A stretch of DNA of 58,135 bases, filler included, from Streblomastix strix (lineage: Eukaryota), in the NCBI GenBank assembly GCA_008636045.1. It is 3 parts of 3 records of this genome, joined end to end, with 100 filler letters (N's around TTAATTAATTAA, not from the genome) between each part and the next. Parts side by side here need not be neighbours in the genome. Positions count along the whole stretch, not along the records: positions 38,826 to 58,135 come from SNRW01000525.1; 2 more parts are not named here. One strand, 5' to 3'. The notes beneath the pieces were generated by a model, which was not told the origin of the DNA, ran no database searches, and worked only from the letters and a program-made list of their open reading frames with translations. The position numbers and the translations under genes are program-made. Below are positions 7,763 to 58,135 of this stretch, piece by piece; the stretch's first letter is position 1, and the number at the start of each line of letters is the position of its first letter.

Positions 7763-8575
7763 ATGACAACAGATGCTAGTAGAACTGGATGGGGAGCGGT
7801 ACTGAAGCTGGGTTAATCAGAATTACTTCAAGCCTCGACATGGAAGAAACCAATGAGTCTTAGATCCAGCAACTAGAGGGAAGCGAGAGCAATTCTTTAC
7901 GCGCTGAGAAAGTTCAAACTGTAACTTGCGGGCATAGATCAATTGACGGTTCAAACGGATAATTAAGTCGCTGTTATGAACCTTTAACGGAAAGTATCTG
8001 CAGCCCCACTAGCGACAACAATGAGATTAATCTTCCAAGATGCAATGCAAATGGGATTGATGTTGCATGCAGTGCATATTATGGGAGTGGATAATAGGTA
8101 AGCTGACGCATTGAATAGACTCGAACTAGTAGGAGATTATCAAATAAGAACAAAATATCCGACTACTGCCCTACTATAACTAGGTCTCACTCTACAGGAG
8201 TACATGTTTGCAACTAAGAAAAATGCGAAGTGCACAATATATTACTCCCTAACATAGGAAGAGGCAGCAGCAGGTACAGTAGGAATTCAAGATGTTTGGG
8301 AGAACAAAGTAATTCTTATTAATCCACCACTAACACTAATTGGCAAAGTAGTACAGAAACTTCGCACAGTACTCAATTGCACAGCAGTAGTGATAGCGAT
8401 GGACTGGCCGAATCAATGGTGGTCTCAGCAACTGCAAAACATGGCATCGGATTAGATTATTCTGGGTAATTCCGAACGAATACTCAAAGAAGGCCCCTCA
8501 ATGAAGCACAGAAATATGAAACTACCTCCAGGAAGAGTAATACTATCCGTGATAAGAACTGGAGAAGAGATATAA
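7763..8575 (+). pseudogene. RNase H plus N6-adenine methyltransferase-like C-terminal part of DIRS pol (frameshifted)
   Basis: TDAS..GWGA, the E and D catalytic motifs and an NPP motif are present. Frame breaks occur between motifs. Confidence 0.8.
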
Positions 8576-9556
8576 TCTTCAACTAATTTGCAATTGCTAA
8601 TCGATTATAAATAGAAGAGTAAGAGTCTTTGATTTGGGAGATGGGACCCATTCTTTGGAGAACACGAAGAGATGCACTTTCAAATCAGGATGTTTATCTT
8701 AAATCGAAAAACAAGAATGCTTCATCTCTTCTTAAAGGAAATGTTGTTCAAAACTTTAGAACGTCGCTTGATTGAATACAAAAGATGGGTAAATCTAATT
8801 AATAAATGGTTGCAATTAGAATAGGGGTATGTTCAATTTTTGCATTATTCATATACAGCAAAGACTTCACAAGATCTCCATTAATCTCAACTGTTATGAG
8901 ACAGATTGTGTCTGGAATAGTAAAGAAACCAAGATATTGCAAAGCCTGGAACTTTAGCATGCTACTAGACTTCGAAGGTCTTAAGAGCAATGAGAAGACA
9001 CAATAAAGTGTTATACTGCATGTGTTAATATTATTAGAAGCTTATTTTACTTTGCGTGGCTCATAACTTGCGCTGATTACTAAGAAATAAATTACAATGG
9101 ACACTGACTAAATTAAGACTATTGATTCAAAAAGAAATGCAAACAATGGCTGCAAAGAAATTAAAATAAGACCAAGATTCAATAAAACGATTTGTCCATA
9201 AGTTGCACTTTCCAAACGGATTGAAATGTTGAACAATAGATTTCCCAACTAGAATTCAGTTCGGTTAAACAAAATGAAACATCTATGCATCAGATTTAGG
9301 CGTTAGAGATTTGATTAGAACAAGAATTAGGTAAGCAGGAATAAGTAAAGAATATGGGTCTAATACAATAAGACATTCAGTAAGGACTCAATTTAGAAAA
9401 TCTAATCTTTCACAGAAATAAGTCAACAAGCTTACAGATCACGCCCAGGGTTCCATAGTAGTAGATGAATACTATAACAAACCGGGTCACCCTCTAGGCT
9501 TAGATGACTTCATCAGTCAAAGTGTGCCAGCCACTTTGATTGATGCTCCCAAGTAA
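8570..9556 (+). pseudogene. Tyrosine recombinase of the DIRS element (disrupted)
   Basis: KKPRYCKAWNFSMLLDF, FTLRGSQL (catalytic R), TICPQVAL, YGSNTIRHS (HxxR-like) and LTDHAQGSIVVDEYYNKP (H and catalytic Y). In-frame TGA and frameshifts are present. Confidence 0.8.
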
Positions 9557-11489
9557 CCTCTATGAAACTCTCAAACAATAAAGAGTGAGGAAATCACTTT
9601 GTGTTGTAATAAAATCAGAATGAAACGATTGATTTTGTTAGTCACAAACAAGTGACAACCCACTTTTTATGAGCCCACCAAAGGCAATTCATACATATGC
9701 CATATGTATAATAATATATTTTATCTTTAATAATCATTTCCTCCCCACTTTTAATTCATATTTCTTTCTTTTCTTTTCTTTTTTTAACAAATATTTAGTT
9801 AACTATAACTGAGATTAGTTCTGTTGTATTCATTTATTGACCTGCGAATTTATACTCGACAGGTGGATATGGGCAATTAATTAATATAACTTATGAGTTA
9901 GCAGCCTCGATTGAAGAGTACCTTGAGAGCTATCATTTCAATCAAAATGAGGGAAAGAACCAATCAATATATTGCCTTCCAGTTACTAGTTTTTTCCAGA
10001 TTCATCTTGAATTTTTTGCTCTCTGATGTAGCTTCCTATGCGCCATCAATGTAAGACAGTCGAGATGAAGCAATTAGGGAGATGGAATGAAAGAATCGAT
10101 ATAACTTTGTATAAACAGCATGTATGGCAGCAAGCAGGGGAGATTGTTTGAGACTTCCATCAATATTACCTTACATTTATATCTATTATAAAAATGACCT
10201 ACAGGTTTCAACCTCTAATACTTCAATCACGGTGAAGTTAGTTATTATGATCAAGATGGCATGATGAGTGAGAAAATACAATCGACAACCATGAGCATTC
10301 TGTCGTCACTCTTGAACTGCGCGACTTTTAGGCAACAAATGATTCTCATTTATTGATGAAATTAATTTTATTTGACTTACATGTAAACTGACGCACCGCC
10401 TCTGAAACGGGAAAGAAGGTGAACAAAGAAAAAAAAAAGCAAACGTTTTATTGTTTTTACTTATAAATATGTTCTCTTCACGCTGTTTCGAGCATTTCCA
10501 CTTCACTTTGATCAACCTTGACCCGTACGCGAAGGCTGTAATCAGAGCATTTCATAATTCGCATCTCAAACAAAAAAATAGGTTGTCACTTGTTTATGTC
10601 TAACATTTTAAATCTATTATATCAATATTATCAAAAATCTAAACAATCATAAGTAAAAATAATTACTCAATAATAATATATATAGATCATAAAAAATATT
10701 ACCTTCTATTTAATACTAACCTTTTTCTTCTTCATAATCTTCTAAATATTCTTAAAATTCTATTTTTTCAGTTCTTTTAAATTAATAACCAACTTTCATC
10801 TACATTATTATTCAGTAAATTTTTCATTCATCTTCATTTTATTCTTCTTCATCATTCAATTCACATGCTCTTACATCTTAATATTCTCACCATCTGAAAA
10901 ACTTTGAATAAACACCATCTTCATTAGAAATGCAATAATACTATTAACATTAATTGTTAATATCTTATTCTTATTATTAATCTACTCAATTCAAAAATCA
11001 AAATCAACTTCATTTTTATCTGAATTCAATTTTGATTAAATTTCAAAAATGCACAGCGAAAGCTCAGTTGAAAGTATGAAAGAATGCCTATATTAAAATT
11101 TATTGATATGCAAAGATAGTGAGTAAAAATAAGAATATGTTATTTAAATATAAATTTAAAATCATGAAATTTTCAATCAATCTATATAAAAAAAGAATAT
11201 TTAGAGTTGAGAATGATTATATTAAATTTAAGGAATGTCTCTACTTTTAACTATAAAGAAATTAAAAATAAAAATTAATACGATGATTATATTTTTAAAA
11301 TTCCAAAAAACATTTTTCAAATCTTCACCCATTCATTCAATATTGTTATTTTTATCAATATATTTTAATAAAAATAAAAAATAAATTATTTTAAAAATAA
11401 CTATTTCCAATAACTCTTTCAATTTGAAATTATTTTAAAAAAAACTTTTAATTTTTGGGGCTACAATTTCGTCTTGACTTCAAATTGCA

Positions 11490-12761
11490 ATGTCTCAGCA
11501 AATCATCAAAATAGTTTGGGAAGCGACGAATGAAATCAGGAAAATATAAGTGGATGAAGATAAATGGCTTGATGGAGTGATAGAAAAAGTCCGAGATTTA
11601 TTTGGAGTTTGCAAGATTGGGGCTGATGAAGAGCCAAATATTCGATTGTGGTATATAGACAATCATGGAGATGCTATATATGTGTCAACATCAGAAGAAT
11701 TGAGGATTGGATTGAGATCAGGGTTGCGTAGCGAGCTTGTTTTATTTGGAAGTTTACTCCAAAGAAATTCATCATCTGATTAAAGTGGGAGTAACCAATC
11801 CGAAAGATATGAAACTAAAATTAGTCGAGAAAGATAAGTGATAAAAAGATATTATTCAGGGAAGGTTCAAATACCAAATGAAGATGAAAAAGAAAATCCT
11901 TTTCTTAATTTTAGAGGAATGAATAGAAAATTCCATGGTTTGTGTGAAATGTTTGGAAATAGGAATTCAAATGAATAATTTGGATTGAATAATGAAAGAC
12001 AAAAGATGTTTGATGGAAAGAATCTGTGGAAAGGAATTGTTGATTCGATTGGAAGATTTACAGGAAAAGGAAGTATTGAAAGCGAAAGAATGATTTAATC
12101 ATTTATTCAGAAGATTCTATAATCACATTCATAATTTGGTAGATAAGAAGATTAAAGCTAAAGGTAATCAAATGAAACAAATTAGAAATCAGAAAGTTAA
12201 TCTGAATCATAATCATCTGAGAAAAAGAAAGAAAGAGAAAAAACTAAAGATGAATAATTGTTATGGAATACAATGTTTGAAGATTTCGGACTTGAAGCTG
12301 AACGACAAGGATCTTAAAAATAAGAGAAAGAAAAAGAAAAAGATAATAAATAATAATAATCAGATGAACATAGATAGAATAATAATAGTGAATATGAATA
12401 TCCACAAATGTGGCATTAGTTTGGTGATATGGCTCTTCAATTTCTGAATCAGATGAATAAGAACAGATCAAATGGATTTGAATAATAGAATTTGAGATGT
12501 TCATAAGATTAGATTGGATAGCATGATAGAACAGAAGACTTCCTTGCATGGGAAGGAATCCGTCAATAACAAATACAAACTCAGACACAAACACAACATC
12601 AATAATAATCATCATCATCTTCTTCTTCTTCAACATCAATACCCATTGAATTTGCTAAAGGATCATCAGTTGAAGGATAAACTGGATCAGAAGACAAAGT
12701 TGAAGAAAAGAAAGAATGAAAGATTCCAGTTGCTTTGTTTATAAATTTTACTGTTAATTGA
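11490..12761 (+). CDS. PB1-domain protein with low-complexity C-terminal region
   Basis: MSQQIIKIVW...IRLWYIDNHGDAIYVSTSEELRIGL carries the PB1 basic Lys and an OPCA-like motif (Y-x-D-x-x-G-D-x8-E). The frame continues with TAA/TAG=Gln to TGA at 12759-12761. Confidence 0.7.
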
Positions 12762-19315: not shown

Positions 19316-19415
19316 NNNNNNNNNNNNNNNNNNNNNNNNNNNNNNNNNNNNNNNNNNNNTTAATTAATTAANNNNNNNNNNNNNNNNNNNNNNNNNNNNN
19401 NNNNNNNNNNNNNNN
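19316..19415. other. Artificial contig linker (44 N + TTAATTAATTAA + 44 N)
   Basis: Exactly 100 bp, with a 12-mer giving TAA in all six frames. An identical copy lies at 38726. Confidence 0.97.
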
Positions 19416-19944: not shown

Positions 19945-21245
19945 AAAAATATATGGATAAGAGATAAATTAATAAAATATTAAGAAATTTTGTATTGAGT
20001 TTAACATAATTGATAATTTAATTCCTTTTTTATTTTAATATAATTTGGGTATGAATATCATTTATATGCTTTGCTTCACTATTTGAACAAGATATTTATG
20101 TGGAAAATAAGTGTGAAATGGAAAATAAGATAAATTGAATTTTTGCAGCAAATTAAAGATTAAATAAATTGGAATGTTGATTTGAAAGAATAGAATAGAT
20201 CAGAGATAATATTTTCTTATCAAATTCAGAAATAGATGATATTTGAATTGAGAATATGCTGACAAATTGAGAAATTTAGAATTAAAATAAAAAGTTATTT
20301 TAAAAGGTTTGAAGAGTTTGAAAAAGTATTAAATAATATAAAATGTATTATAAAAACAAATTATTATTATTTTAAAAACTTTGAGCAACTACAATTGTGA
20401 ATAAGTGGAGAGGAAATCTGATTCCAAATTTTAGACTTATGAATTTTTTTGAAGTAAATTCGGAGAAATTATAAGTTTGGTGTGTTGATGATAGAATTGA
20501 AAAACATTTAAATTGAAACTTAAATATTATCGATATTTAAATAATATTAAATTATCAATTAAATGACAATAAGTTAGAAAGTGGAGAAAAGTAATCAATA
20601 AATTAATCTTTATTCTTTATATTTCCCCAGCATGAAATTAATTTGTGTAAAATTTAATAAAAATTGATGCGTGCTTTATCATTAATGTTTTTAGATATTT
20701 ATCGTTCAAAAATATCTATTTTTGGCATGAAAAAAAATCAAAAGCCTAAAATTTGGAATTAGATTTTCTCTCCACTTATTCATAATTGCTGTTGTTCAAG
20801 GTTTTAAAATAATAATAATTTGTTTTTATAAAACATTTTATATTATTTAACACTTTTTCAAACTCTTCAAGCCAATAAAAATAACTTTTTATTTTAATTC
20901 TAAATTTCTCAATTTATCAGCGTCATCTCAATTAAATTATCATCTATTTCTGAATTTGATAAGAAAATGTTATATCAGACCCATTTTACTCTTTCAAATC
21001 AAATTTTCAATTTATTTAACCTTTGAATAAACTGCAAACATTCAATTTATCTTATTTTTCATTTTACACTTATTTTCCACATAAATATCTTGTTCTAATA
21101 GTGAAACAAAGCATATAAATGATATTTATACTCAAATTATATCAAAATATAAAAGGAATTAAATTGTTAATCAGATTAAATCCAATTTAAAAATTTCTTT
21201 TTATTTTATTTCTTTATTATTAATCTCTTATTTGTATATTTTTAT
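19945..21245. repeat. Long imperfect inverted repeat (arms ~19945-20440 and ~20740-21245, spacer ~300 bp)
   Basis: 20049 GTATGAATATCATTTATATGCTTTGCTTCACTATTTGAACAAGATATTTATGTGGAAAATAAGTGT matches the reverse complement of ~21065-21131. 20392-20438 matches the reverse complement of 20741-20788. Confidence 0.92.
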
Positions 21246-42327: not shown

Positions 42328-42704
42328 ATATAATAATAATAAAAAAATAATAATAATATCTAAAATGAAATAAAAATTTGATGTTTATTAATGTAAAAGA
42401 AAATAAGCACTTGAATAAAATTAATGTTTGACGTATATAGAATGATTAATGAATATATGATATTGGAATCGATTAATAAATTGATTAATGATGTATGATT
42501 TTTGAACGTATGGCACTCTCCATATTTTCATAATTATATAGGAAAGTTGATGGAGTTTGTTGATGAATTTGAACAAATGGAATTATTAAAATATAATTAT
42601 ATTCGGAAACTTAAAATTTATTGGAGAAATCTATAGTGAAACCATTAATAAATGAACATAAAATATATTGGTAAGTGATGCACCGAGTGCATCGAGTCAT
42701 AATA

Positions 42705-42860
42705 CATCGATGGATTTATCGAAATTGGCACGAGAAAATGGAATAGTTAATCAATAGCTTTTGACAGCACCGAGTGCATCGAGTGCATCGGGTCAGAAAC
42801 TTCTATAAAAAGCTGCGGCTAACTTGACAACTGGCCAATAATTGAGAAAAATAAATATTT
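42705..42860 (+). repeat. Viral dispersed repeat copy R1
   Basis: CACCGAGTGCATCGAGTGCATCGGGTCAGAAACTTCTATAAAAAGCTGCGGCTAACTTGACAACTGGCCAATAATTGAGAAAAATAAA. Confidence 0.92.
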
Positions 42861-42867
42861 GCTTATT

Positions 42868-45252
42868 TCAATCGTTAGCATCTTCATTTGCTTCTTCATT
42901 TGCATCTTCGTTGTTATCTTAGTCTTCTTCTCTAAGTCTATCGAACAATTTTATTAAATCTCCATTCCATTTATATATTCATATTCGTTTTCCTGCAATT
43001 GATTTATATATTCTTTGAGATTTATTTTTTAATTATAACTAGAATGATTTCTCTTTAACATCGAATGGTTCGAATTATAATGCAATAGTGCAAGGCATGC
43101 CTTCTTTAAACGCTTGATAATTTTATATGATTATATTATCAAGCTATAAACATGATGTTCTAATTATATCCTATTTCGCCTTTGTGAATGGAATGATTCT
43201 TTAGTTCCAGCCTTTAATATTTCTGGTCATAAAATAAGTAAATAAATTATTGTAAAATTCAATAGTGAAACCTTTAGATAAAGTTGTGAAATATTCAACA
43301 TCGTCTCTATGAGCTGCTTTATATCTGTATACAACATATCACCTATCGTTTGCTTCTATCTTGATTGAGAAATCATTATTGGTTACCATTATCAAATTCA
43401 TAACATTTTCTGATATTCAATGAGGTTAATTTTTTTCATTTATTCTTATTTAATTATCGGTTATTATTGACTTCAACGCATCCATGTTCGAATATCTTGT
43501 TTCTTCAAAATTTTTAAGTTCATTGGCTATTCCAAGCATTATTTTTTCAACGATTGAATTAAATTAGCCTGTAAATTCGCTTATATCAGTAATATTTTTA
43601 ATTGAATATCCAGCCAATAATTCACATAAAACATCAGTGAATCTTTTTTTGCCTATACCTTGACTGCTTTACAATATCAATGCCTCTTCTGATTTAACAC
43701 AAATATTTTACATAATAAACGCAATCCAATTTAAGATATAATTATATAAATTTTAATCTTCAGCTGCTATTGGTTCATATATTAAATTTAAATAATCATT
43801 AATAAGGTCCTCATTAACCACGGATAATTATTAATATTTATAACCTTAAAATATACTGAAAACGTCTTATTCACCGCTCATAAATTTTATAGCTCTCAGT
43901 GCGAATAAAGGATTATATTTTTCTAGAACAAGTTTTAATGTTATTTTCTTTTATCCATCTTCCCATAATCTTACCATTTACAACTAATCATAAGCAGCTG
44001 TTTTATTCATGAATTAAATTTTATTCTTTTTATTTCCTGCATCATATTATTTATCTATGGATAATTAACCTCCATCGCATGGAGCAGTTCGTAATATTCT
44101 GGGTAAGTTCTGAGCTATTAGTTCATATTCATTATAATTATAGATGCTATTTTATAACTTTTTTTACATGTTGAACAATGTGAAACTATCTTTTAAATTA
44201 ACTTTTTATACTTCAATTTAATTTTTACATCTTTTTTCATTAACTAACATAGGCATTACATATTCTTAATAATATTTTGCATTATATTTTTTAATTATTT
44301 TTTATAAAACGAATGGATGTGATTATTTTTATTCATATCTTTTTTAGCTACATCGAATTATTATTTTTCTCTCTCTGTTAAATTATTATTATTATTTATA
44401 TTTTCATATGTTTCTTTAATGTATTGATTATCAATTCCTTCAACGTTAATTATACTATTAATTGCTACAAATAATGGAGATAAAGTTATTTCTTCATTTA
44501 AATTATGACCTTATGAATCGTTATATATTTCAAGACCATTAATTCCTTTACATAACATAATCACGAAATATTTTTCATATCGATTAATCCTGTTTGTTGT
44601 AGCAGTGGTTTGTCTTACTCATTATGTTATTCTTTTTAATTTCGCATAATCTATTAATTAACATCTAAATCTATTCCAAATTTGTTCAAATTTGTCCTAA
44701 ATCACATAAATTTATTTTATCTAAATAATCATTTATATCTTCAAATTTATATATAACTTTAATTTCCCCAACTTATTTATTCAAATCTTCCATTTGTTTT
44801 GTTGCTTTAACTCTATTGCGTGTTTTCAACCCACATTACATAATCCGCCGTTACTTATCATCCACACATGCAAATATATCCATATTAAAACTATCACTTT
44901 TATAAACTTATATATTTGATGTTCTCTATAATTCATATCCATTGATATCGCAATAAATGTGAAGTCCTCCATGTACTGTTCTGATTAATCCCACATTTTA
45001 AGGCATTTTTTCTACTATATATTCTCGAATTTATTTTTAAATTAACTTATCTTAATTTTTGTTTATATCAGTATCAACAATAGCAAGATTTTAACATTTT
45101 GATATATAGATTGCTCTACCTGAATATGATTTACCTATCTTGCCAATGATTAGAAATTTATTATAATCATAAGTGTTCACATATGAGTTTTAGATACGTT
45201 CTTGAATTGTTAATGATTGGCTGGTTTGAGCTTGATTGTCTTTTGACTCCAT
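42868..45252 (-). pseudogene. Primase (prim-pol/AEP-like) fused to D5-like SF3 helicase
   Basis: N-terminal LAIVDTD (DxD) and RTVHGGLHIY (GxH). C-terminal Walker A LQSSQGIGKK, GQFNS, IANEL (Walker B), LKSIITDNQIRINEK and IMVTNN..IEANDR*Y. In-frame TGA at 43339 and 43417, plus frameshifts. Confidence 0.88.
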
Positions 45253-45351
45253 TTATATATAGTTAAATAGTTGAATTAATTAAAAACAAACTCATATATT
45301 TTTAAAATAAGATTAAAAATTTTTAAAATTGATTTTTTTTCTTATATACGT

Positions 45352-45480
45352 TTTATTTTTCTCAATTATTGGCCAGTTGGCCAGTTTGTCACAATTTTTA
45401 TAGAAATTTTTGACTAGGTGAACTCGATGCACTCTGTGCAGTTAAAAGTCATTCATTAACCACATCAATTATCCGTGTTA
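45352..45480 (-). repeat. Viral dispersed repeat copy R2 (inverted partner of R1)
   Basis: Reverse complement reads GCACAGAGTGCATCGAGTTCACCTAGTCAAAAATTTCTATAAAAATTGTGACAAACTGGCCAACTGGCCAATAATTGAGAAAAATAAAA. Confidence 0.92.
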
Positions 45481-45858
45481 AAATCATATATTTTTATATT
45501 GCAAAATTCGGATATATGAACAGTTCAAGATTCCGATTTAAACGTCATTTTTGAATTCTACATATCAACATTGTAAATAAACATCATTCTCAAAGTTAAA
45601 TGGAAACATTAATTTTTTGGCATATTTTTCTGGCTTAAATTTTTTACAGTCATTATATATTGTAATTAAAAAAATTAAAAAATTAAAAAATAACTTTATT
45701 TTTATGAAATTTTAAATTCATTTGATAATCAACTATATACACAATTTATATGTGCTGATTCCGAATATGACCATTTTAGTTCAATTTTAAACCGTTGATT
45801 AGGCTCAATTAATAGCTTTATTTTACTCAAATAATTAATTATTTTTAACATAATTAAA

Positions 45859-46407
45859 ATGAAAAGTCCAACTATTCAAGAAGTGGAACCATAATTTGAA
45901 AAGGAAATTGACCTATTTCAGCTACCACTCCAGCAACATATTATAAGATGTGAATCGACAACCTTGTCAGCTAGGCGAAGAAGTTCAATATTTGAAGAAA
46001 CTTTAACTCCAGACCCTTCAGTTTGTTGTTGGCTTTTAGATATCATTAGTGAAGACGTGCAAATGGTTAAAGAATCAGTGTATTTCGTATTATCTGAAAA
46101 TTAATTGATTCTGGTTGTTGCTTACACTTTTGACGTCCCTGGAAGTTAAATTTAATTGAGTATAGAGAATGAAAGATGTTGTGGTAGGTTCTGCAGCGAT
46201 TCGATTTAAACATTAAATGAGATATTAATTGGGAACGTAAATATATTAAAGCTCGACGTCGAAATAGTAAATTTATTAAGGGATAGCTATAAAATATGCT
46301 TATAAAAAATAAGAAAAATAAGAAGTATTTTAGATTCAGGATAAATAATAAGCAAAATTATTAGTGCAGTATCAAAAGGATTAATGACTGTGTTAAATAA
46401 AATTTGA
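45859..46407 (+). CDS. Hypothetical viral protein (182 aa) with internal Cys-Cys motifs
   Basis: Uninterrupted frame MKSPTIQEVEPQFEKEIDLFQ...ENERCCGRFCSD...KGLMTVLNKI*. Confidence 0.65.
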
Positions 46408-46477
46408 TGCTTGCCGCAGCCTTCTTACGCAGTAGGCGGAGTTTTACGTCATAATAAATTATTTTTATTTTTATAAA

Positions 46478-49091
46478 ATGAACGGAGATTTACATATGGT
46501 TGATGTTGTTTTAAATCGTGATTAAGTGCTTTATGGTTCAAGTAGATATAACACCATTGGCTTAATTAATGAGGTTAAAAACATTGAAAATTTAATAAAT
46601 ATGACTAATGAAGCGCCTGAACCTTATAATCGTGAAGATATTGATGAAACGTTAGATAAAAAATTAAATATTATCGATTAAATCGATGCATATTCGGAGA
46701 CTGAAGCCGATGCCCAGTTGCTGTTAAAGGCAGATAAAACAGAGCTAATTGATGCATATTCGAAGACTGAAGCCGATGCCCTACTCGAAAGCAAATCAAA
46801 TATAATAGATTATATCGATATATATTCGAAGACTGAAGCCGATGCCCTACTCGATGATAAATTAAATATATCTGATTAAATTAATGCTTCCGCTAAATAA
46901 GAGGATAACGCTTTGCTATTGTTTAAGGCTTATAAAACATAGCTAATTGATGCATATTCGAAGACTGAAACTGATGCTTTACTTGACGACAAATTAAATA
47001 TTTCTGACTAAATTGATACTTATACTAAAAAAGAAGATGATATTCTGCTGTTGTTGAAGGCTGATAAAACAGAGTTAGCGGATTACGTTAATTTAGGCAC
47101 TGTTCAAACAATAACAGGTCAAAAATAATTCGGAATAATAAATGTTTCAAGCATATCGAAATAAAATAAAAATGATGCTTCTATTCTTCTTGCAAGAGGT
47201 GGCGATATGATAGTAAGTTCATTAGTATCATAGCCGTAATTATAAGAAGTGCGAGATATTGCTTCATGTAAATCAAAAGGATATGTTTTTTGACAACTTA
47301 TGAGATGAATACTTGGATGGAAGAATAGGAAAACGTTGCAAAATTAGCAATTGGTGATAATTTTTATATAATTGATAAGTAAGTCATGGATTATTGGTAG
47401 GATGGCACTGGTCTTCGAGCACAAGAAATAGAACTGCAAGATATGAGCAACGTCATGACCATTTTTGGAGCTGTTACAGGGGAAGCAATGCTATAACAAA
47501 TTTATCATTTGATGGAAATTCATTAATATCTGCGAAAAATAGTTCATTTATTACAACTAATTATGATGAAACTATTTTAGGTTAAAAGACTTTTAACACA
47601 ACTATCCACTCAATCGGAATAATGGTTCAAAATTACGATAACTATTCTGTTGTTTGTGCTGGAGGTGGTGTTAAGGCAATATTGGATATAAATCCAAGCG
47701 TTGATTTTTCAAATTATTATAGTAAATCATAAACATATTCATAAACTGAAACAGATTAAAAATTAATTCTAAAATTAAATATTTCTGATTAAATCGATGC
47801 TTATACTAAGACATAAGATGATGCGTTGCTGCTATTGAAAGCTGATAAAACATAACCAATTGATGCATATTCGAAGAATGAGGCCGAAGCCCTACTCGAC
47901 GACAAATTAAACGTTAGCGATTAAATTGATGCATATACTAAATGAGAAGATGATGCTCTGCTGTTATTGAAGGCAGACAAAACATAATTGGTTGATGTAT
48001 ACACTAAAGGAGAAGCTTATAATCTGCTCAATATTAAAGCTAATTCAGGAATATCATACACAAAAGGAGAAGATGATGCGTTGTTGTTGTTGAAGGCAAA
48101 TCAATCAACAACTTTTACCAAAACTGAAATTGATTACTTGATATCTTAAATTGAAGTTGGTGATGTTGATTTAAGTGGTTATATGACCTTAGTCACTTCA
48201 TAGACAATAACAGCAAACAAGACAATCAATAATGCTTGTAGATTCGTAAGTTCTATCGATGGAACGGCAATAATTACAGGCGCATTGTTTGATAAATCTG
48301 GCGCTGACGATACTGTTATATTACTTGGAGTTGGTGGTACTAAGCAAATTTCTGAATTTGCGGGTACTCCAACTTATTTATCGGACTATTACACAAAAAT
48401 ATAAACATATTCGAAAACAGAAACGGATAATAAATATGTAAGATTGGAAGATTCAATTAAATAAACAATAACAGGAAGATTAAAATATGTTTGTCCATTT
48501 GGTTAGACATACGATGAAATATAACACCCAGTTGTTAATACTTATTTGACTATGTCAGAAGTAGATTCGAAGCTATCAAATTATATTAATGCCACTAATA
48601 ACTAATCAATAAATGGCACAAAGACATTCAACGCTAATGTTAATGCTACTGGATTTGTTAAAACAGGTAAGCATGATACATCCGTTTTATTGGCATGTGG
48701 AAGTGATGCGTTGATATCATCATTTGGTGGATTAACATTAGAATATATTACGTTTACGAGTAATGTTGTCCCTCCAGTATCAATAACATTTTTCTATTGT
48801 TATCGTGTAAGACCATTGGTTATATTATAAACATAAATATATATGACAAGCGGAACAGGTAATGATGCTGCATCAATTCATGTTGCTACTCTTGCAAGTA
48901 CTGGATATCCGAAAAATTAATTTTATTATTTTAGCACAATGACCAGCAGTCCAGGCATTCAAAACGCATGATGGACTGTATCAACTAGCGGAGTCATTAC
49001 AATATCAATAATATCGCCAGAATCAGTAAATCCAGGCTTATATGCTTCTGTATCTTCTTATATTAATGTTATATTTCCAGCTAAGAATTGA
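46478..49091 (+). pseudogene. Fibre/tail-fibre-like repeat protein
   Basis: Many IDAY(S/T)KxE(A/D)DALL..K(AD/LN) repeats interleaved with QTITGQKQF, ETILGQKTF, QTITANKTI and QSINGTKTF repeats, then a C-terminal beta-rich head. Frameshift at ~47290 and TGA at ~47943. Confidence 0.7.
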
Positions 49092-49189
49092 AAACAATAA
49101 TCCTTTCAATTAAACTTCGTGTTAATGCTGCCTCTGGTTATAATTGTTTGAAATTGTTTGGATTATTTATTTATTTTTATTGAATATAA

Positions 49190-50845
49190 ATGTCGAACGT
49201 TTATATCTATGAAAGATTATTAGGCGCTGCTGGTATATCTGACTTCGCAGAGTTATACGCATATATAAAAGAACGTAATCCTAAGCCACTCGATCAATTA
49301 CAGCAACTAATTCCAATTGGGGATCAAACTCTGCAACAGCAGGTGAAAAACAATGATGATATTATCTATGGTTCAGGCTCAAATGAGGAGTTCGAGCCAC
49401 CAGTGCTGAATGCAATAACGAATTTGGATTTGAGTTCGCAATTTGAGCGATAAAGTTTCTTAGCATCCAGTGGTTCAGATCCATAATTAATCATATATGG
49501 CGGTAGAATCACATTGACAGCGTCATATGCAACAACAGGTGTATTTCCGAACGATTATTTATTTAAAAGTTATCCCCAGAAAGCGAGACCAAAACAAGGT
49601 GATTAAGTGATTGCATTGGTTGGAACCGATGCATCTAATACATATAATATATTTTGTTATATTGATTAAAACGGGTCATATATAATAATCTCCAGTTAAT
49701 TACCATCAAATACTGCTCTCGTGCTTAACATTAAATATTAAAAAAATTTTGAATCATCAAAGTAAATAAATTATGTTAATAATAAAGATGGAAAAATAGA
49801 CATTATGGACACGTGGAATGTAAATGGTAAAGGCAATTTTGAAGAATAATCGTATGTTTATGAAACAGTTAAAAAATAAACTGATTTAATTGAGGCAGGA
49901 GTTTAAGGGCTAAATAGAACTAATTATTTGAATAATGAAATTAAATCATTGGATGAATTAGCGATATATAAAGCAGATAGGGCAGCATATTTTATTAAAG
50001 ATGGATCATTTATCATTTATAGTTTTGGAGAAATATTGGCTCAATTAGGAGCTAATTTTGAAGCTTAATAAACCGTATATAAATTATTCTCGACAATCAG
50101 TAAAAAATTACTACCACCATATACGATATATATGCCTATTCATGTAGAACAGCAGAAATTTTCTGCTATGTATCTGTTCAATGATATTTATGATAAATCA
50201 TCTGCGATATTGGTCGCCATTAGTGGATAATTAATTATGTTTGATTGCGAATTTCAAGGAACTTATATTCTTGATAACTATATGAATAGCACAAACGCCA
50301 ACGAATCAACACATGAAGATATAGAATCTTGCATCGACGAAGTAATAATAAAACATGAAAAATAATTAGGTTCATCACCGCAACCACAATATAAGATAAC
50401 AAATTTCTATAATCAACTTATGATAAATGTTTTTTTTCTTTCATCAGCATATAATACATTCTATATCGTTGATGATGGCATTTGTAGAGTATGCGTAATC
50501 AACCTAAATTTAGAATAAAAACGTTTGGATGGGAGAACATAAGAAGTTGGTCGTATTCCTGATTCAATTTTATTTGTTCATGGTAAAAGTTTGGGCTTCC
50601 CTGCGGCTGTATATAGAACATAGGGCGGAAGATAGAATAATTTTACTGTGAATTATTTTATTGTAAATGCATAATTTAAAAATGTTATACTTTTAATTAT
50701 AAGAACCATAAGAGTCAATTCCATAAGATTCGGCTGATGCTTATAAATATTGAGCTAGTGGAATGTATTATTTATGAAAAACAGCGCCAGCAACATCAAC
50801 GAAAAGCATTGAATAGGAGCGATAATTTGATTTAGTTAGTAAATG
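49190..50845 (+). CDS. Hypothetical viral protein with repeated beta-rich domains (receptor-binding/fibre-head-like); 3' end disrupted
   Basis: Open from MSNVYIYERLL to TGA 50735-50737, then continuing after a frameshift with further stops to 50845. Segments include YPQKARPKQG, KLLPPYTIYMP and VGRIPDSIL. Confidence 0.6.
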
Positions 50846-50950
50846 ACTTTTAGGTGTTCCGAGTGTTCCAAGTGCTCAGAGTCAAAAACTTTTATAAAAA
50901 GCTGTGAACAACTTGGCAAATGGCCATAAATTGAGAAAACATTAATAAAA
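50800..50950 (+). repeat. Viral dispersed repeat copy R3
   Basis: ATGACTTTTAGGTGTTCCGAGTGTTCCAAGTGCTCAGAGTCAAAAACTTTTATAAAAAGCTGTGAACAACTTGGCAAATGGCCATAAATTGAGAAAACATTAA. Confidence 0.92.
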
Positions 50951-51012
50951 AAATCATTTATTTAAATCCAAAATATGATATATAAAATTTTATTATGATT
51001 ATAAATAAACTT

Positions 51013-51327
51013 ATGACTGTAGACATATTCTCAAAAATAAAGCAATTAGTTTAAAAAGTAGGGAAGGGTCTTTAATGGGTAAATAATAACTTTTATATCC
51101 CGTTTATAAAACCATTTGCTGAACCGATACTTGGAGCACTGAGAACTGTCGGCTAAACAAAAGGTAAAAGGTTAGATGTTGCGAGTTCATTTCTTGATTA
51201 TCGTTATGGTGCGGATAAAAATAATTAATTTAGATAAGATTTTGTAACATTGAGAATTGATAAATATTTAAGATAAAAATTACCCATTGATATATAGAGT
51301 CGAAGAATATAATTATAGAACCAATGA
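51013..51327 (+). CDS. Small basic protein with an N-terminal amphipathic helix (candidate membrane-lytic, adenovirus pVI-like)
   Basis: MTVDIFSKIKQLVQKVGKGLQWVNNNFYIPFIKPFAEPILGAL..., located just upstream of the capsid gene. Function is inferred only. Confidence 0.5.
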
Positions 51328-51396
51328 TATATAAAAAATTATGTTCAATTCATTAGGTCGGTCTTCCAAACTCCGCATACGGCTGTTTAAGAATAT

Positions 51397-51560
51397 TTAT
51401 TTTTTAATGTTTTCTCAATTATTGGCCAGTTGTCCAGTTGGGCACATCTTTTTATAAAAGTTTTTGACTCGGATCACTCGGAACACTCGGAACAATCGGA
51501 ACACCTAAAAGTCATTCATAATTCAATCTAAATTATAGTGTCAAAATAATGCTTTTTTAT
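51397..51560 (-). repeat. Viral dispersed repeat copy R4 (inverted partner of R3)
   Basis: Plus strand reads TTAATGTTTTCTCAATTATTGGCCAGTTGTCCAGTTGGGCACATCTTTTTATAAAAGTTTTTGACTCGGATCACTCGGAACACTCGGAACAATCGGAACACCTAAAAGTCAT. Confidence 0.92.
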
Positions 51561-51632
51561 CAATGATTTTTCTAATTATCAACGTTTTTATATTTCACTA
51601 AGTAATTATTTAACTATTTCATTTTTTATTGA

Positions 51633-53353
51633 ATGTAAAAGATGAAAAGATTTCTAATGAAAACCACACATTTACAACAAGCAGGGCCCATTGAAGAAAT
51701 AATGTAAGGTAATGCCGTTGTTCCATTTGCCAATGATGAAGAATATCATTATTCAATCAAGGAAATCATACCAGAATCTTAAATGCCAGCGTTGATTGAA
51801 AAGGAGAATATCATTAGTTTATCAGATACCGACCACGACATCACATAGATATAAAATTCGTATATGTCTGTAGTGCTAACGGCAAATATCTAATTTGATG
51901 AAAAATTTGATAAAATTGATGAATCATATAAAGATGAATTGGTTCTATTTGTAGGACTCAAATCAGGTTCAAATCTTATTCGCGAATATACCATCTAACA
52001 TAAAGGTAAAACTATTGATTGAAGTCTATAGATTGAAGCAACAACTGAATCATTCATTTATAACGCAATCTAGCCAAAAAGTGAGAAAAATAATAAAATG
52101 CATAATTATTCTTTATACGAGAATATTCATAATTTTGATACGTCAGCGCGTGGAACATATATAAGTATGCGAGAGATTGAAGAGCTAATAGGAAATCAGA
52201 CAGCGATTCCATATACAATTACAATAAACTTCAGAGTCAGCATTCCACTTGATGACCTCTTGATATTCTCTGCATTCACTGATTATCCTAATGGCCTATT
52301 TGGTGATTTAAAAATAAAATTCAAAATTAGTCCTCATGCATTCGTGTTCTATTAAGTGAATCTAATTATTTCAGTGGCTAAATATTTTACAATGAATAAA
52401 GATGAGTTATTGGGTAATAGTCAGTAAATGTTAATGGATATTGATTTTATGTTCAGAAATTGGAGTCTGACATTCTAATACACCAAATAATTTACATAAT
52501 TAGGATGCACTGCTGATTTGATTACAGGACTACATGCGGAGCCATTAACTGAATCAGGACTGAAAAATTTAATATGTGACATCAAACCCGTTACCATAAG
52601 CATTAAAATTATGTCATTACAAAGGTGACCGCTAACATGGCAGGTTATAAAGCTACTGATGCATGCCTTAATCGAGTCCGTTAATTCAATTGCTAACGTA
52701 CATTTGTTGTTCCCACTCAGCAAGTGGAAATATGTCCATTTCCAACGAATGCTACATTAATGGGAATACAAACATCTTAAAATATTCCTTTGTCTCATGT
52801 AACCGACTTCTGTCTGCTATTTCCGAAAGATGCAAGAGCTACGACTTGCTTTGAAAATTTTTGTTATCAGTTTATGCAAATAACTACCAGCGGACATAAT
52901 TTCCTAGATATGCTTATGAATACGCTTGACTAGTAATTCTTCTAATTATAACTCAATGCGTCAAATATTGATCTACTGTTCGACGCTACAAATGAGTGCG
53001 AAGATGCATTAACAGCACTAAGAAATATACCAACTCGAAGACAGAATCCTCTAACCGATTTAGTAAGCATTTTGATAAATCTGTAGTGTGAAAGAAATAG
53101 TAATGGAGCACTAACTTTTGACGGACTGGACACTCAGAACTAATATACTTCTGTCGAACTCAGAGCAGCGCCGATATGTCAAGGGGCAACAAATTCATAC
53201 TACAATGTAGATATCAGTGGAAAGAGAGCACCATTTGCGATTTTATGTACAGTACATGATACGTTTTGGTTATTCTCACCCGCTGCAGGTTGTAGCTGCA
53301 TATATGATACTAATCATACATTTGATGAAGTTATTGGACCATTAAGTGCTTGA
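51633..53353 (+). pseudogene. Putative major capsid protein (double jelly-roll, Polinton/Maverick-like)
   Basis: ~570-codon beta-rich frame: LFVGLKSGSNLIREYTI, HNYSLYENIHNFDTSARGTYIS, SIPLDDLLIFSAFTDYPNGLFGDLKIKF, NIPLSHVTDFCLLFPK, CERNSNGALTFDGLD. It resembles my recollection of metamonad Maverick capsids and has the right size and context. TGA at ~52020, frameshift at ~52600. Confidence 0.72.
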
Positions 53354-53495
53354 AATAATTGAACCGTTATTTGATAACATTTTTATTTTTTTATCTATAT
53401 ATATATATAACTAACACCTAAAAATTAATAATATGGTTAATTAAATAGGTCATTAGTTATATGTCCATTAAATATTTTCATTTATTTCTTAATAA

Positions 53496-54000
53496 ATGGT
53501 TTCAAATATGACATCAGCATAAAACTTAAAATTTTACACTTTGACATAAAGCGAATGAGTTTTTATCGGAGAAAACGGATAAAATGGAGTTGGTTTTGCA
53601 TTACCATATGCGTTTGCAAATTCTGATAATTAAAGAAAAATAATATTCTGCTAATGTTATTGTTCAAACTTAGGCACTAACGAGAACATAAGCGTGCATA
53701 GTTCGATGGTTAAAGAGGTGTAATATTTCGATTAATTTGTTGGCTATTGTAATGAATAATGAGTTTATAAGCATTTCATCTAATACAACCACAACAGATA
53801 TTTATATGTTTGGTTCCGTTAAAATTAAGAATTATTGGAAATAAATTAATAATTAAAATTTGTTCTTGAGTTGATGCTGGAATACTGAAATAGTTGCTGG
53901 CTCAAAAATGAGCTAGCACATTAATACGTTAATTTTTGTTCATATCTTCGAGCCATTTCATCGGCTGAATTTCAGCCAACCAAAATTAATCGATTTATTT
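53496..54000 (+). pseudogene. Disrupted hypothetical viral gene downstream of the capsid (possible minor capsid)
   Basis: MVSNMTSAQNLKFYTLTQSE*VFIGENGQNGVGFALPYAFANSDN..., with broken frames. The assignment rests only on position and beta-rich composition. Confidence 0.3.
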
Positions 54001-54033
54001 ATATTTAAATTTAACTTTTTATCATAATATAAA

Positions 54034-54895
54034 ATGGAGTTATAGGTCAGCATTGAAGGCAAAGAAGAATTTATCAAAACATCATATAATGGAATTGAAA
54101 TTATTGCTAGGAAATCAGATGGGTACATTAACGCTTCAAAAATAGTAAGGAATCTAAAAAGAAATGAGCATATTAAAATAAATGAATTATTTAAAACTAA
54201 AGGAAGGCAATTATATTATAAAAATTTTGTTTAATTATAGCAAAATAATCAAGGGGCGATTTTTCGCCTCTAGACTTTTATGGAGTTAAATTTGAAATAT
54301 TCAACAGATTTCAGAGGATATAATGTTCATCCAAAATTAATTAATTATATTGCAATCTGGGCGTCCCCAAAATATTCTTCACCAATAGGAGAAATAATGG
54401 ATGTAATTAATGAACGTATATAAGTTGCATACAAAGAAAAATATTAATAAGATGATTAGACATCCATGGCTGATATTGTAAACGAATAAGTTTAATTAGT
54501 TATAGAAGAATAAAAAATAGTAATAAATTAAAAAGATGAAGAAATAAAACAATTGAAACCAAGAACAGTTCCACAGGGCAAAGAAACAGCTTACGTATTA
54601 GCCGTTTATTATATAGAAGTTGATGATAAAAATAATACAATTTTAAAGGTTCGAAGAAGAAATAAGAAATGGATTAGTCGAAAATTGATGCAGGAATTAA
54701 AAGATGTATTTGTTATACTACGACTAAGAATGTATTTCTATGACTAAAAATGAAGCCCTCAAAGAATATTTAAATAAAAATATGGAAGGTATTTAATTTA
54801 AAGGAACCAAATATATATTTAATGAAGATTTAACTGATGATGTTATAAAAAAAATTAAAGAAAATATTAATAAATAACTTGAATAATAAATTTGA
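54034..54895 (+). CDS. KilA-N domain protein (late frameshift)
   Basis: YNGIEIIARKSDGYINASKI...FRGYNVHPKLINYIAIWASPKY are classic KilA-N motifs, followed by a coiled coil. Confidence 0.88.
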
Positions 54896-55285
54896 ACGAT
54901 AATTTAATTTATTTTCGCAGAAATTAAATGGAAAGAATATTGTTCGACAACAGAAAAAAACAATTAATTTATTTCGAAATTATAAATAGAAACAGATGAA
55001 TAGGAAGAAATACCACTCTAGGATGGGATCGAAGGTTAGATTTACGGACATAAATATTTTGAGAACTTAAACGATTTCAAATAATTTATTTCCTAAAATC
55101 AATATTAATTATCTAAACTATCAAAGTAAAAATTAAAAAAATTATATAAATTGGATGGCCATAAGTTATCAAAAATGGAAGGTCAAGTATGTATAAGAAC
55201 TTGTGAAAAAGATTAATTTGTGTAGTATTAAGTTTAAATTAGACTAGTTTTTGGATGTTCTGAACCATTTGGTTTAAGCGCTGAA

Positions 55286-55405
55286 ATGAATGTCTTTTGA
55301 GTGTTCCGAGTGTTCTAAGTCAAAAAACTTTTATAAAAAAGCTGTGGCCAACTGGCTAACTGGCCAATTTATTAATGAAAAAAAAAATGTGAGAAAAATA
55401 AAAAT
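55286..55405 (+). repeat. Viral dispersed repeat copy R5
   Basis: ATGAATGTCTTTTGAGTGTTCCGAGTGTTCTAAGTCAAAAAACTTTTATAAAAAAGCTGTGGCCAACTGGCTAACTGGCCAA. Confidence 0.92.
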
Positions 55406-55443
55406 CTATTAACTATTTCAAATTATTTTAACAACTATTCCAC

Positions 55444-56215
55444 TCATTTCATATTATACCACTAATGCTTATTATTTCGTTAGTCATACATACTCATATC
55501 ATATTGTTTCTTTATCTGGTGATATTGAAGACTATTAGAAAAATTAATTAAATTTTAATCTGTTAAATGAACCGAAGAACCATAATGAATCAAGATTTGA
55601 CTTAATCGCAGCATCTAAACCAATAAAATCCTAAAAACAAAAGAAGTATGTTATTCTGGGCTAACGGTTCTAAAATAATTGCTTAAATAGTGGATTATTT
55701 TTATTTTTAAATATACTCATTGCATCATCAAATAAATCAATTGTACGAGGAAATTTTACGTTAAAATTACCTTCTCCACTAGCTCCAAATACATTGATTA
55801 ATATATTATTTTTTAATTCTTCCGTTACCTCTTTTTATAATTATTTTTCTAATATTTCATCATAAGCCTATTTACATTCTATCTAATCATTCAGCGCTTA
55901 ATCCGCTTCGTCATATGGAATAATTTTTGGAGGTATTTTAATAAAATTCTTCATCTTTTTGTAAGTGGTGTCATTATTTGAGTCGCTGACGTATATGAAT
56001 AGTGTATAACTATGTTTTTTAAATTAGTTTAATTTAATTAGCTCCTTGAAAGCGTTGTATGTCTTATCACTACCACGCTAACCTATCAATAAATTTACAG
56101 TTTAATATGTAAAATTTAATTCTTTATGAATAATTGTACAAATTTCGTGCATATTCACTTTTATTTCTTTTCATTTGTTATCTACTTTTTATGTTAAACA
56201 CGCCAATTTTTCCAT
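55444..56215 (-). pseudogene. A32-like (FtsK-HerA) DNA packaging ATPase
   Basis: Walker A VNLLIGQRGSDKT (G>D), Walker B TIDLFDD, then NRQPRITYFFCFQ (Arg finger and Gln sensor) and IKSNLD. Early in-frame TGA at ~56171. Confidence 0.85.
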
Positions 56216-56244
56216 ATAAAACTTTTATTTATCGATAAGAAATA

Positions 56245-57351
56245 GAATTGCATCATCATTAACAGAATAAAAATTACAAAAAATAATCGATTAAGAAGAA
56301 TCAAACGCAAAGAAAGAAACTGAAGCGAAAAAAAATAATAAGGTGCAGGTGGTAGTAGTTCAGGTGATTTGATAGAAATTGATGGAATGGAAGATGATTA
56401 CGATTATTATGAATCACAAGCAACAATATAAGACAGAATGAAATCACGAACAAAACTGTTTGGTAGGCTGCGATTTCATCCCAGTATGATTCAAAGAACA
56501 AGAACGCATGCAGGCACATAATTTAGAGAAGAGGCAGGCGATGTTCTTGCTACACTTGTCGGTTATTTGAACAGAGATATTAAGAAAATTAATAGGTTAT
56601 CGTCTGCTGTTAGTGCTCAAAAATATATTGACGATAAACATTTAGGCAAACGATTTAGTGTATAAGAATAAGACTTAGATGATAATTTAGCCACTCCTAA
56701 CAATATGGTTGTTTATGATAAGAAAAAGAATGCAATTCATTCAGTCGATGGTTATACGACAGCAGTATGATTTGGAGACCCAGAATATAAATATAAAAGA
56801 AATTCGAAGAAAAAATATTATTCAGATGTTAATGATTTAGAACGAGCTGCATTCGCTGCCAAATTAAAAGTATCTGGAATAAAAGGCGGCCCTTATATGA
56901 AATAGCTATCAATGACTAAGACGTATAAGGTAAGAGAAATAAAAAATTATTGTTTCAGAGCATTCACCATCAATGCCAAAAAAGTCATAGACCAAAATGG
57001 AGACGCATTATTGCAAATGGTAACCAAACAACAAATAATAGCATCTGCTTGGAATTCAGTACTTATTATTCCTGCCGTAGAAATATTAGAAAGATAAGAT
57101 GGAAAAATAGATATATGTAACAGAAGCAATAAAGGACATGTATAAAAAGGAGAATACGAATATTTACCACTTGCTAAAGGATAGTATAAGAAAGAATTAC
57201 CTACCGTTATTACTCAACTATATTAAACCGAAGATGTCGATGCTAGGATTAAGGAAGCTCTTGGATAAGCTATGTAATAATATGGTCAATTCTTACGAAG
57301 AGATAACAATAAATTAGTTGTTTCGATTTTGCTAAATATAAAGTCAAATGA
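56245..57351 (+). pseudogene. Hypothetical viral protein divergent from the ATPase (disrupted; start not identified)
   Basis: Long near-open frame VLATLVGYLNRDIKKINRL...DLDDNLATPNNMVVYDKKKNAIHSVDGY...MTKTYKVRE, ending at TGA 57349-57351. Internal TGA and frameshifts. Confidence 0.55.
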
Positions 57352-57361
57352 TTTAGGAGAA

Positions 57362-57513
57362 TTATTTTTTTATCACTTTTTGGCCAGTTGTCCAGTTAGC
57401 CACAGCTTTTTATAAAAGTTTCTGACTCGGAACTCTCGGAACATTCGGAAAGCTCAAAAAACATTCATAATCCGCATCATTTTCTCGTGCCAATTTCATA
57501 AAATTCATTGATG
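57362..57513 (-). repeat. Viral dispersed repeat copy R6 (inverted partner of R5; outer extension shared with R1)
   Basis: Plus strand reads TGGCCAGTTGTCCAGTTAGCCACAGCTTTTTATAAAAGTTTCTGACTCGGAACTCTCGGAACATTCGGAA...ATTTTCTCGTGCCAATTTC. Confidence 0.92.
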
Positions 57514-57582
57514 CTTCTACTCAATCCACCAAACACAATCCAATTTATTTATGTAATTATTTTTTATTTTTATCTCTAATAA

Positions 57583-58135
57583 ATGGCAGATAAATAGGGG
57601 TAAGACTCATAAAGACGACGTACGCCCCCGATTGTGCCTCAGATTGTGCCACCGTTAATGACTCAAGAATAACCAGATCTTTTACCATTAAATTTACCTC
57701 CTCATCAATCGCCCAGATAAACATAATAATAAATGACTTAAACGTAGGACTATATTATGTAAATGTAAGCAAGTAATTATTAACTATCGCTTGAATTATA
57801 AATGGAGCAACGGCAATAATTATTGACATAAATGCAGAATTATATTACGTAAATGTATGCACATAATAACCAATTATCGCCTGAACTGCAACCCGAACAA
57901 CAGGACGAAGCTCACGATGTGCGGATGGATTATCAAATGGATTTAAGACCTAAAAAATTAACTCAAAATATTATAAGAGAATTAATGTTTTTATATGACC
58001 CTGAAATATAATAGAAAATAAACATTAACGAATTAAGGTCTTAATTTTCATAAATTTTAGATAAAATCGGTTTAAATCACGGTAGAAACAATAGAGATAT
58101 AGTTCGAAATGCAATATTATAATCAGAACCATTTG
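57583..58135 (+). CDS. Hypothetical P/Q-rich viral protein, runs off the window
   Basis: MADKQGQDSQRRRTPPIVPQIVPPLMTQEQPDLLPLNLPP... stays open to the window end. Confidence 0.65.

Follow-up and report, generated by a model that had tools for sequence, protein, structure and literature searches.

Why should a viral genome contain six internal copies of one repeat in strictly alternating orientation? The question is raised by a decayed endogenous Polinton-like virus (PLV) of the termite-gut protist Streblomastix strix. It lies in a stretch of 58,135 nt from assembly GCA_008636045.1, here called the window, whose positions 38,826-58,135 come from SNRW01000525.1 and whose reading is fitted by genetic code 6. 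The six repeats, R1 to R6, are non-coding elements of this virus. The explanation that we favour, and consider somewhat probable, is that they are iteron half-origins bound by the viral helicase, each inward-facing pair being a split origin homogenised by gene conversion.

Positions and anatomy of the six repeats

A nucleotide hidden Markov model (HMM) of the six cores matches the window strongly at six places and no others (E 3e-23 to 9e-31); the model was built from these same cores, and thus the strength of the six matches is circular. The next-best match (E 0.07) falls on an incomplete block in the outer flank of R1, and no copy was detected by the HMM in the 38.7 kb of host DNA of the window. 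The cores are about 105 bp long and are located at 42748-42852 (R1, plus strand), 45356-45458 (R2, minus), 50837-50941 (R3, plus), 51408-51521 (R4, minus), 55286-55379 (R5, plus) and 57366-57470 (R6, minus). The strict +,-,+,-,+,- alternation, which has a chance probability of 2/64 = 0.03, had been described in a first-pass annotation of the locus and is borne out by these matches.

In each core, about three 9-bp units are accompanied by an AT-rich palindrome and by a tandem with an 8-bp period, which ends in TGGCCA. The 9-mers are of the TGCATCGAG type in R1 (three units) and R2, and of the TGTTCCGAG type in R3-R6; R4 has one additional 9-mer, and R5, the most decayed copy, has one fewer. The outer flank of R1 (42680..42747, plus strand) contains an extra partial 9-mer block at 42680-42701 and a stretch in common with the outer flank of R6 (57471..57530, minus strand). 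In the viral part, a scan for GC-rich short-period tandems yields six arrays, four with a 9-bp and two with an 8-bp period, all in or at five of the six cores; it yields zero arrays in the host DNA. The repeats have no match in Rfam. They had been called structured, but their single-strand folding (z-scores from -1.98 to +1.44) is no better than that of shuffled sequences, as 9-189 of 200 shuffles fold equally well.

The inward-facing partners are also nearest neighbours. The gaps within R1/R2, R3/R4 and R5/R6 are 2504, 467 and 1987 bp, and the gaps between pairs are 5379 and 3765 bp. In agreement with the earlier description, these pairs enclose, respectively, the primase-helicase gene, a gene encoding a small amphipathic protein, and the A32-like ATPase gene together with its divergent partner. 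The inner end of R1 is situated 15 bp behind the helicase stop codon. About 20-40 bp separate R5 from a viral stop codon, R4 is about 75 bp from a likely gene end and R6 is close to one. R2 and R3 precede start codons by 55-100 bp, the distance from R2 to the helicase start being about 100 bp.

One explanation of these positions is that the repeats are transcription signals (terminators, insulators or enhancers) separating convergent and divergent viral genes. R1, R4, R5 and R6 stand shortly behind a gene end in the same relative orientation, and R2 and R3 stand before a start in the opposite one. The homologous regions (hrs) of baculoviruses, according to the accessible part of PMC4746121, are both enhancers and origins, and like the repeats of the window they occur in several copies per viral genome, dispersed between genes, and are presumed origins or enhancers. 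However, a single element would have to serve both gene ends, it forms no stable hairpin, several genes have no repeat at either end, and its design matches the helicase-linked iteron arrays described below. Thus we consider a transcriptional role improbable. The hrs themselves, as described in the same part of that paper, consist of imperfect palindromes in arrays, are found in large circular genomes and lack alternating opposed half-sites, and no homology is implied. A build of this type, with a long imperfect palindrome, was considered for the six repeats and rejected, as they contain a short AT palindrome only and their folding does not exceed that of shuffles.

It is hardly credible that the repeats are small paralogous open reading frames (ORFs), or artefacts of whole-genome amplification or assembly; this explanation is largely refuted. 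Indeed, an ATG opens the conserved block in five of the six copies, one indel is exactly 9 bp long, and the assembly has scaffold gaps. However, there is no coding signal in any of the six frames, the share of synonymous changes being that of the column-shuffle null (p 0.43-0.88). The copies are 70-86% alike and not near-identical; the repeat positions are covered by contigs of two studies, and a repeat stands at the place of R4 in gene models from other contigs. As far as it can be tested, the repeats also are viral, as had been assumed, and do not represent a scattered miniature inverted-repeat transposable element (MITE), given their absence from the host flank. The read depth of repeat bins falls within the range of gene bins; since depth is not copy number, this is a weak hint, and only against a far more abundant MITE.

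Iteron arrays beside primase-helicases and a proposed split origin

The anatomy of the repeats, which the first-pass annotation had overlooked, resembles that of the iteron origins of primase-helicases. In the Staphylococcus aureus pathogenicity islands (SaPIs), according to the part of PMC9371898 available, the origin contains iterons immediately downstream of rep and an AT-rich centre, with at least two iterons per side in opposite directions. The replication modules of SaPIs and other phage-inducible chromosomal islands (PICIs), which encode Rep or a fused PriRep5, share with the viral locus a primase combined with a superfamily 3 (SF3) type helicase, short direct repeats behind the gene, an AT-rich stretch and opposed blocks, as far as the same source describes them. 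In the window, a primase-SF3 helicase is encoded beside the site, and short tandem iterons adjoin an AT-rich stretch. On the other hand, the SaPI origin is described there as one compact site with penta- or hexanucleotide iterons, whereas the window has a 9-bp unit and six blocks, partners are 0.5-2.5 kb apart and enclose genes, and binding is putative. Since the compact layout is absent, the repeats might work like a SaPI-type iteron origin but do not belong to that class.

The mechanism that we propose is as follows. The 9-mers would be bound by the virus's own primase-SF3 helicase, and two hexamers would load in opposite directions, as in SaPI origins. The halves of the origin would have moved apart, so that genes now lie in between. 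Gene conversion between the nearest opposed copies could keep the partners alike, and inversion or exchange of other modules would be a by-product of homology rather than the work of a dedicated shufflon. Alternation would be expected, because an opposed pair would be the unit that functions and because inversion between opposed copies preserves it.

Support for this mechanism comes from related loci. Self-comparison of viral contigs carrying a related primase-helicase revealed opposed 9-bp triplets directly beside the gene. Opposed blocks with 9-bp spacing were detected in 12 of 26 viral loci, 11 of them within 450 bp downstream and one within 700 bp upstream of the primase-helicase. When helicases at least 75% identical are merged, this amounts to 8 of 16 groups, and none of the 165 control windows behind other genes was positive. 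Further opposed blocks in these loci are recognisable by eye; two earlier detectors, which included a GC filter, found fewer. A capsid-bearing viral contig (L038) contains three dispersed, origin-like units of ~120 bp with opposed short repeats around an AT-rich centre (940-1075, 8780-8910 and 11430-11560), one per terminal repeat and one upstream of the helicase, two of the three flanking the helicase gene. Dispersed non-coding repeats were found in 9 of 36 related loci, and none of the 36 has six alternating ones.

Two of 35 S. strix helicase gene models continue into a threefold repeat of the tripeptide CPE, and one of these, about 70 codons further on, continues into a threefold TQD. TGTCCTGAG is the sole 9-mer that can encode CPE when read on one strand and TQD when read on the opposite strand, and only 28 of 2680 tripeptide classes are compatible with such a double reading. 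This 9-mer coincides with TGTTCCGAG of the window at 7 of 9 positions. Hence an opposed pair likely stands just behind the helicase gene of another S. strix copy.

Several facts weigh against the split-origin explanation. Firstly, opposed iteron blocks flanking an AT-rich centre in one compact site are not seen in the window, which is negative in the compact-origin test, its partners being 467-2504 bp apart. The 8-bp block resembles the inverted 9-mer block at p<0.05 in one repeat of six only; since no recognisable inverted copy of the 9-mer block is present there, a single repeat is not a whole origin. Secondly, two of the three inward-facing pairs contain no helicase, four repeats just behind gene ends would also fit a role in transcription, and the virus seems, from a motif only, to carry a protein-primed polymerase as well, which would start at the genome ends. 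Thirdly, the detector was written after the examples had been viewed, and without the three discovery groups it is positive in 6 of 13. The supporting viral helicases are distant (24-31% identical) and their 9-mers are different, and the repeat HMM has no significant match on L001-L014 (best E 0.54). Among closer relatives, metagenome loci, 0 of 10 were positive, seven being too short downstream and three negative. Finally, the CPE/TQD argument is built on translations of gene models whose introns are unknown. When viral contigs, metagenome contigs and prokaryote genomes were scanned for the repeat pattern, nothing was found.

A bolder form of the proposal, which we regard as rather unlikely, is that a single primase-helicase origin was broken into three half-site pairs enclosing genes, so that the modules would have become separately copyable and exchangeable mini-replicons.

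The related loci have some further features. In L017 (12335-12970), two different 9-bp iteron families stand in tandem behind one helicase gene, one of the families forming two opposed pairs. L010-L013 are Polinton-like contigs, one of them labelled as human gut metagenome. Their capsid is weakly related to that of the window (E 2e-6 to 7e-5) and a small amphipathic gene is upstream of the capsid gene; they have no dispersed repeats. A short opposed motif AGGTGA/TCACCT is located directly behind the helicase gene of L010.

Pairing of the repeats and exchange of modules

The cores of R1 and R2 are 83% identical, those of R3 and R4 86%, R5 and R6 77%, and R4 and R6 83%. In the maximum likelihood tree, R1 and R2 are joined with 98% bootstrap support and R3 and R4 with 79%; R5 and R6 are not joined. 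The sites shared exclusively by the partners number nine, two and one, respectively, and GCTGTGGC/GCTGYGG is nearly shared with R1 and R3 too. Thus the claim that every pair has private variants holds strongly for R1/R2 and moderately for R3/R4, and is not confirmed for R5/R6. The tree with three pairs is the best of eight tested, yet it is not better than trees breaking R5/R6 or R3/R4. The approximately unbiased test rejects a pairing of outward-facing neighbours (p=0.004), and trees grouped by orientation are rejected as well (p=0.006).

The outer flanks of R1 and R6, whose likeness had also escaped notice, are similar over about 60-115 bp (score 71, with shuffles averaging 21 +/- 3.5 and 0 of 300 reaching this score). 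R1 is a mosaic, since it combines an R6-like outer flank with R2-like 9-mers, and another copy joins an R6-type flank to a partial 9-mer block (joint 57511-51476).

The window capsid departs from its own clade at 36 of 223 conserved positions, equivalent to about 7-8% nucleotide decay. After such decay, once-identical copies would be 85-87% identical, which fits R1/R2 and R3/R4, and also R4/R6. Since the inward-facing pairs are the nearest ones, proximity-dependent conversion could produce the pairing pattern without any cassettes, and fold-back between partners may be the cause of the homogenisation.

The same identities could mean that the inward pairs are terminal arms of nested mini-elements, R1-helicase-R2 being an autonomous one-gene replicon and the other two being non-autonomous, with viral genes that they have captured, and copied in trans by the helicase. 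The 2.7-kb helicase unit is bounded by the most similar pair, the arms of R1/R2 and R3/R4 fit the identity expected after decay, D5-like helicases flanked by repeats have been described as mobile (PMC11296320, in the part available), and many related helicases reside on contigs barely exceeding the gene. However, no target-site duplication above chance was found at the four candidate boundaries, where the longest direct repeats are 4-5 bp and are matched by 62-97% of random pairs; decay could have erased one. R5 and R6 are not sisters, the enclosed genes include a core virion gene (the ATPase), the small gene occupies a fixed place across copies, and there is no repeat outside the virus within the window. 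Short contigs are expected from metagenome assembly alone. Overall, we find nested mini-elements quite improbable. Most of the helicase relatives in ENA/Logan (P0095-P0168, about 750 aa) are on contigs of 2.3-2.9 kb; flanking repeats, gene-sized molecules or assembly bias could be responsible.

Indirect sources of information on other S. strix copies are NCBI gene models that fuse neighbouring viral genes and, for 48500-58135, contigs of four runs from two studies. Capsid gene models are fused to another window gene in 25 of 83 cases, and 24 of the 25 have the order and orientation of the window, which are kept down to capsids about 45-60% identical. This evidence is one-sided, as an inverted gene could never appear in a fusion. 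In the exception, helicase and capsid are joined inside genes, away from any repeat. In 17 of the 83 models the small gene stands before the capsid (13 by tblastn and four more from uncovered segments), and among 34 further cluster members there are one more such fusion and one of capsid followed by KilA-N. There are no long ATPase fusions, and 0 of 150 ATPase relatives match another window gene or the repeat translation.

The contigs show repeats at the same places in other copies. In the gene models P0001 and P0006 the repeat translation stands at the place of R4 with a 9-mer nearer to the R1/R2 type, and in the joint 51395-55416, as read, an R4-type inner end adjoins the ATPase end. Thus repeat variants move between positions; no inversion is demonstrated. 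Seven of eight long-range joints shown touch a repeat at one end, with 15 of 274 joints shown; the short sides of these joints (20-38 letters) together with paralogy suffice to produce this.

The window helicase belongs to a clade of two members (support 100/97), apart from clades of 16 and 3 S. strix models; the short row P0167 was dropped from this tree. The window capsid is in a star-like clade of 14 members (60 rows, at least 200 aligned residues). This minority position of the helicase, the position of the capsid, and the private 9-mer of R1/R2 suggest that R1, the helicase and R2, a unit with a 9-mer variant of its own, probably arrived together through a swap of replication modules. However, the window helicase and P0147 are 78% identical in the C-terminal and 32-37% in the N-terminal part, so that the gene itself looks mosaic, and exchange is possible without the repeats. 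Among the S. strix models P0162, P0007 and P0147, one helicase model carries a fused HNH domain, and in another a piece of helicase is joined to the middle part of a capsid gene.

In the first-pass annotation, inversion or exchange of modules at the repeats, in the manner of shufflons or cassettes, was advanced; recombination would then be their main role, carried out by a site-specific recombinase or through homologous recombination. In shufflons and other systems of site-specific inversion, a dedicated recombinase acts on short sites, and the population is mixed in orientation. The viral locus resembles them in having inverted repeats that bracket potentially flippable segments, and none of the shufflon hallmarks were found in the window. 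Recombination at the repeats is suggested by the distribution of strands: from 45859 on, the identified backbone genes outside the pairs are on the plus strand, and the two identified minus-strand genes (helicase and ATPase) are inside pairs. The mosaic R1, the shifted repeat variants, the repeat-touching joints and the helicase of a minority clade point in the same direction. However, no tyrosine or serine recombinase was detected among the viral ORFs scanned, in an element cut by the scaffold gap and the window end. The gene order in fused models is preserved with recurring small gene-capsid and capsid-KilA-N neighbours and an exception broken inside genes, the joints are those predicted by paralogy alone, and the helicase mosaic needs no repeats. 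Together with the missing target-site duplication, this leaves cassette inversion without positive support, the order evidence being one-sided as said. Exchange has some support for the helicase module. Overall we judge a primary role in recombination unlikely, and the split origin remains the explanation that we prefer.

The viral locus and its place among known systems

The virus extends from the scaffold gap at 38726-38825 to the end of the window. Its left end enters this gap and its right end is beyond the window, so that the element is incomplete. This gap and a second one, at 19316-19415, are runs of N enclosing an identical 12-base linker. The host gene before the virus meets it by the scaffold join, and no integration site is visible there.

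One or several broken ORFs entering the gap (38826..40957, minus strand) have no family match in Pfam and PHROG scans. They contain a motif YITYDFES, which, without a database match, we take to recall the exonuclease I motif of protein-primed polymerase B. The primase-SF3 helicase gene of D5/NrS-1-like type (42868..45252, minus strand) is disrupted by frameshifts and stops; it was identified by Pfam DUF5906 (E 4e-11), homologs and the tree. A homolog matches PHROG primase families, and the family matches PDB 6k9c/6k9e. Between R2 and R3 there is a backbone block (45859..50737, plus strand) with an ORF without assignment, a broken repeat-rich gene, called fibre-like from sequence appearance alone, and a 515-aa ORF at 49190-50737. 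The gene order in this block is identical in other copies.

The small amphipathic protein gene (50995..51327, plus strand) has the same orientation as the capsid gene in the 17 gene models mentioned above. The frameshifted gene of the major capsid protein of the Metamonada group (51633..53353, plus strand) has 83 protein matches to its fragment, all named Streblomastix strix. Capsid look-alikes (Atlas) include Capsid_N and Sputnik_MCP members. Capsid scans of sequence collections and a PDB sequence search with the capsid profile gave no match, and the predicted fold is of low confidence (predicted local distance difference test, pLDDT, 32). A supplement row of PMC10120064, in the part available, matches an S. 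strix capsid protein similar in sequence to that of the window to PDB 3j26. The KilA-N domain gene (53908..54753, plus strand; Pfam E 2e-12) stands behind the capsid gene, and with the same orientation, in another copy too (P0340). The broken A32-like packaging ATPase gene (55415..56200, minus strand) has 230 relatives, with Pox_A32 matches in 4 of 17 scanned. Its broken divergent partner, with approximate ends (56300..57351, plus strand), has no Pfam match and only a weak unnamed PHROG match.

A capsid of the Metamonada group, an A32-like ATPase and a replication gene are all present, as in PLVs of this group. Bellas et al. 2023 (PMC10120064) assigned S. strix capsids to it, and a row of Table S1 lists 820 for the S. 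strix genome, probably a capsid count. As far as the available part of that paper goes, these viruses share with the window the host, the genetic code, the capsid family and the genes for capsid, packaging ATPase and primase-helicase, but only terminal inverted repeats are described.

Host DNA at 19985-21195 contains a long inverted repeat unrelated to the viral ones, with arms of about 190 and 227 nt that are 84-89% complementary. At 1244-5587, a unit of about 1.24-1.3 kb is present four times (65-79% over 300 nt), apparently as a decayed tandem gene array. A retroelement remnant with RNase H and Dam-like methyltransferase matches, followed by an ORF without matches, is located at 7763-9468 and presumably resembles a DIRS-type element.

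Inverted repeats near PLV primase-helicases were proposed by Barth et al. 2024 (PMC11296320, in the part available) to be an origin and a recombination substrate, and repeat-flanked mobile D5-like helicases are described there. The end modules of those PLVs, according to the same part, resemble the window in the inverted repeats by the primase-helicase, in the exchange of replication modules and in an internal copy of the terminal inverted repeat in Gezel-14T. Their repeats, in contrast, are terminal and beside a tyrosine recombinase, whereas those of the window are internal and six-fold, bracket structural genes and are accompanied by no recombinase found. Six internal alternating repeats are not described in the accessible parts of 10.1101/2022.07.28.501842, 10.64898/2026.07.28.741278, 10.64898/2026.06.19.733378, PMC4642659 and PMC4746121. 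Searches of the openly available literature yielded no layout of six alternating sites that has genes within the origin, subscription papers and bioRxiv or figure-only supplements being outside this scope. Hence the role of such repeats in origin and recombination is an existing proposal, and the six-site alternating internal layout is apparently new.

According to the available parts of 10.64898/2026.06.19.733378 and PMC11296320, the start of replication in primase-helicase PLVs is untested and the frequent swapping of their modules is unexplained. The repeats provide concrete candidate binding sites, with a 9-bp unit that differs between helicase clades, in one host with hundreds of copies. 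Co-variation of site and enzyme and exchange of modules are directly testable in a single public assembly; the significance is tempered by the decayed copy and the uncultured host. Under the bolder and rather unlikely form of the proposal, this would be a DNA virus whose genome consists of origin-bounded modules that the helicase could amplify, flip or swap between hundreds of endogenous copies.

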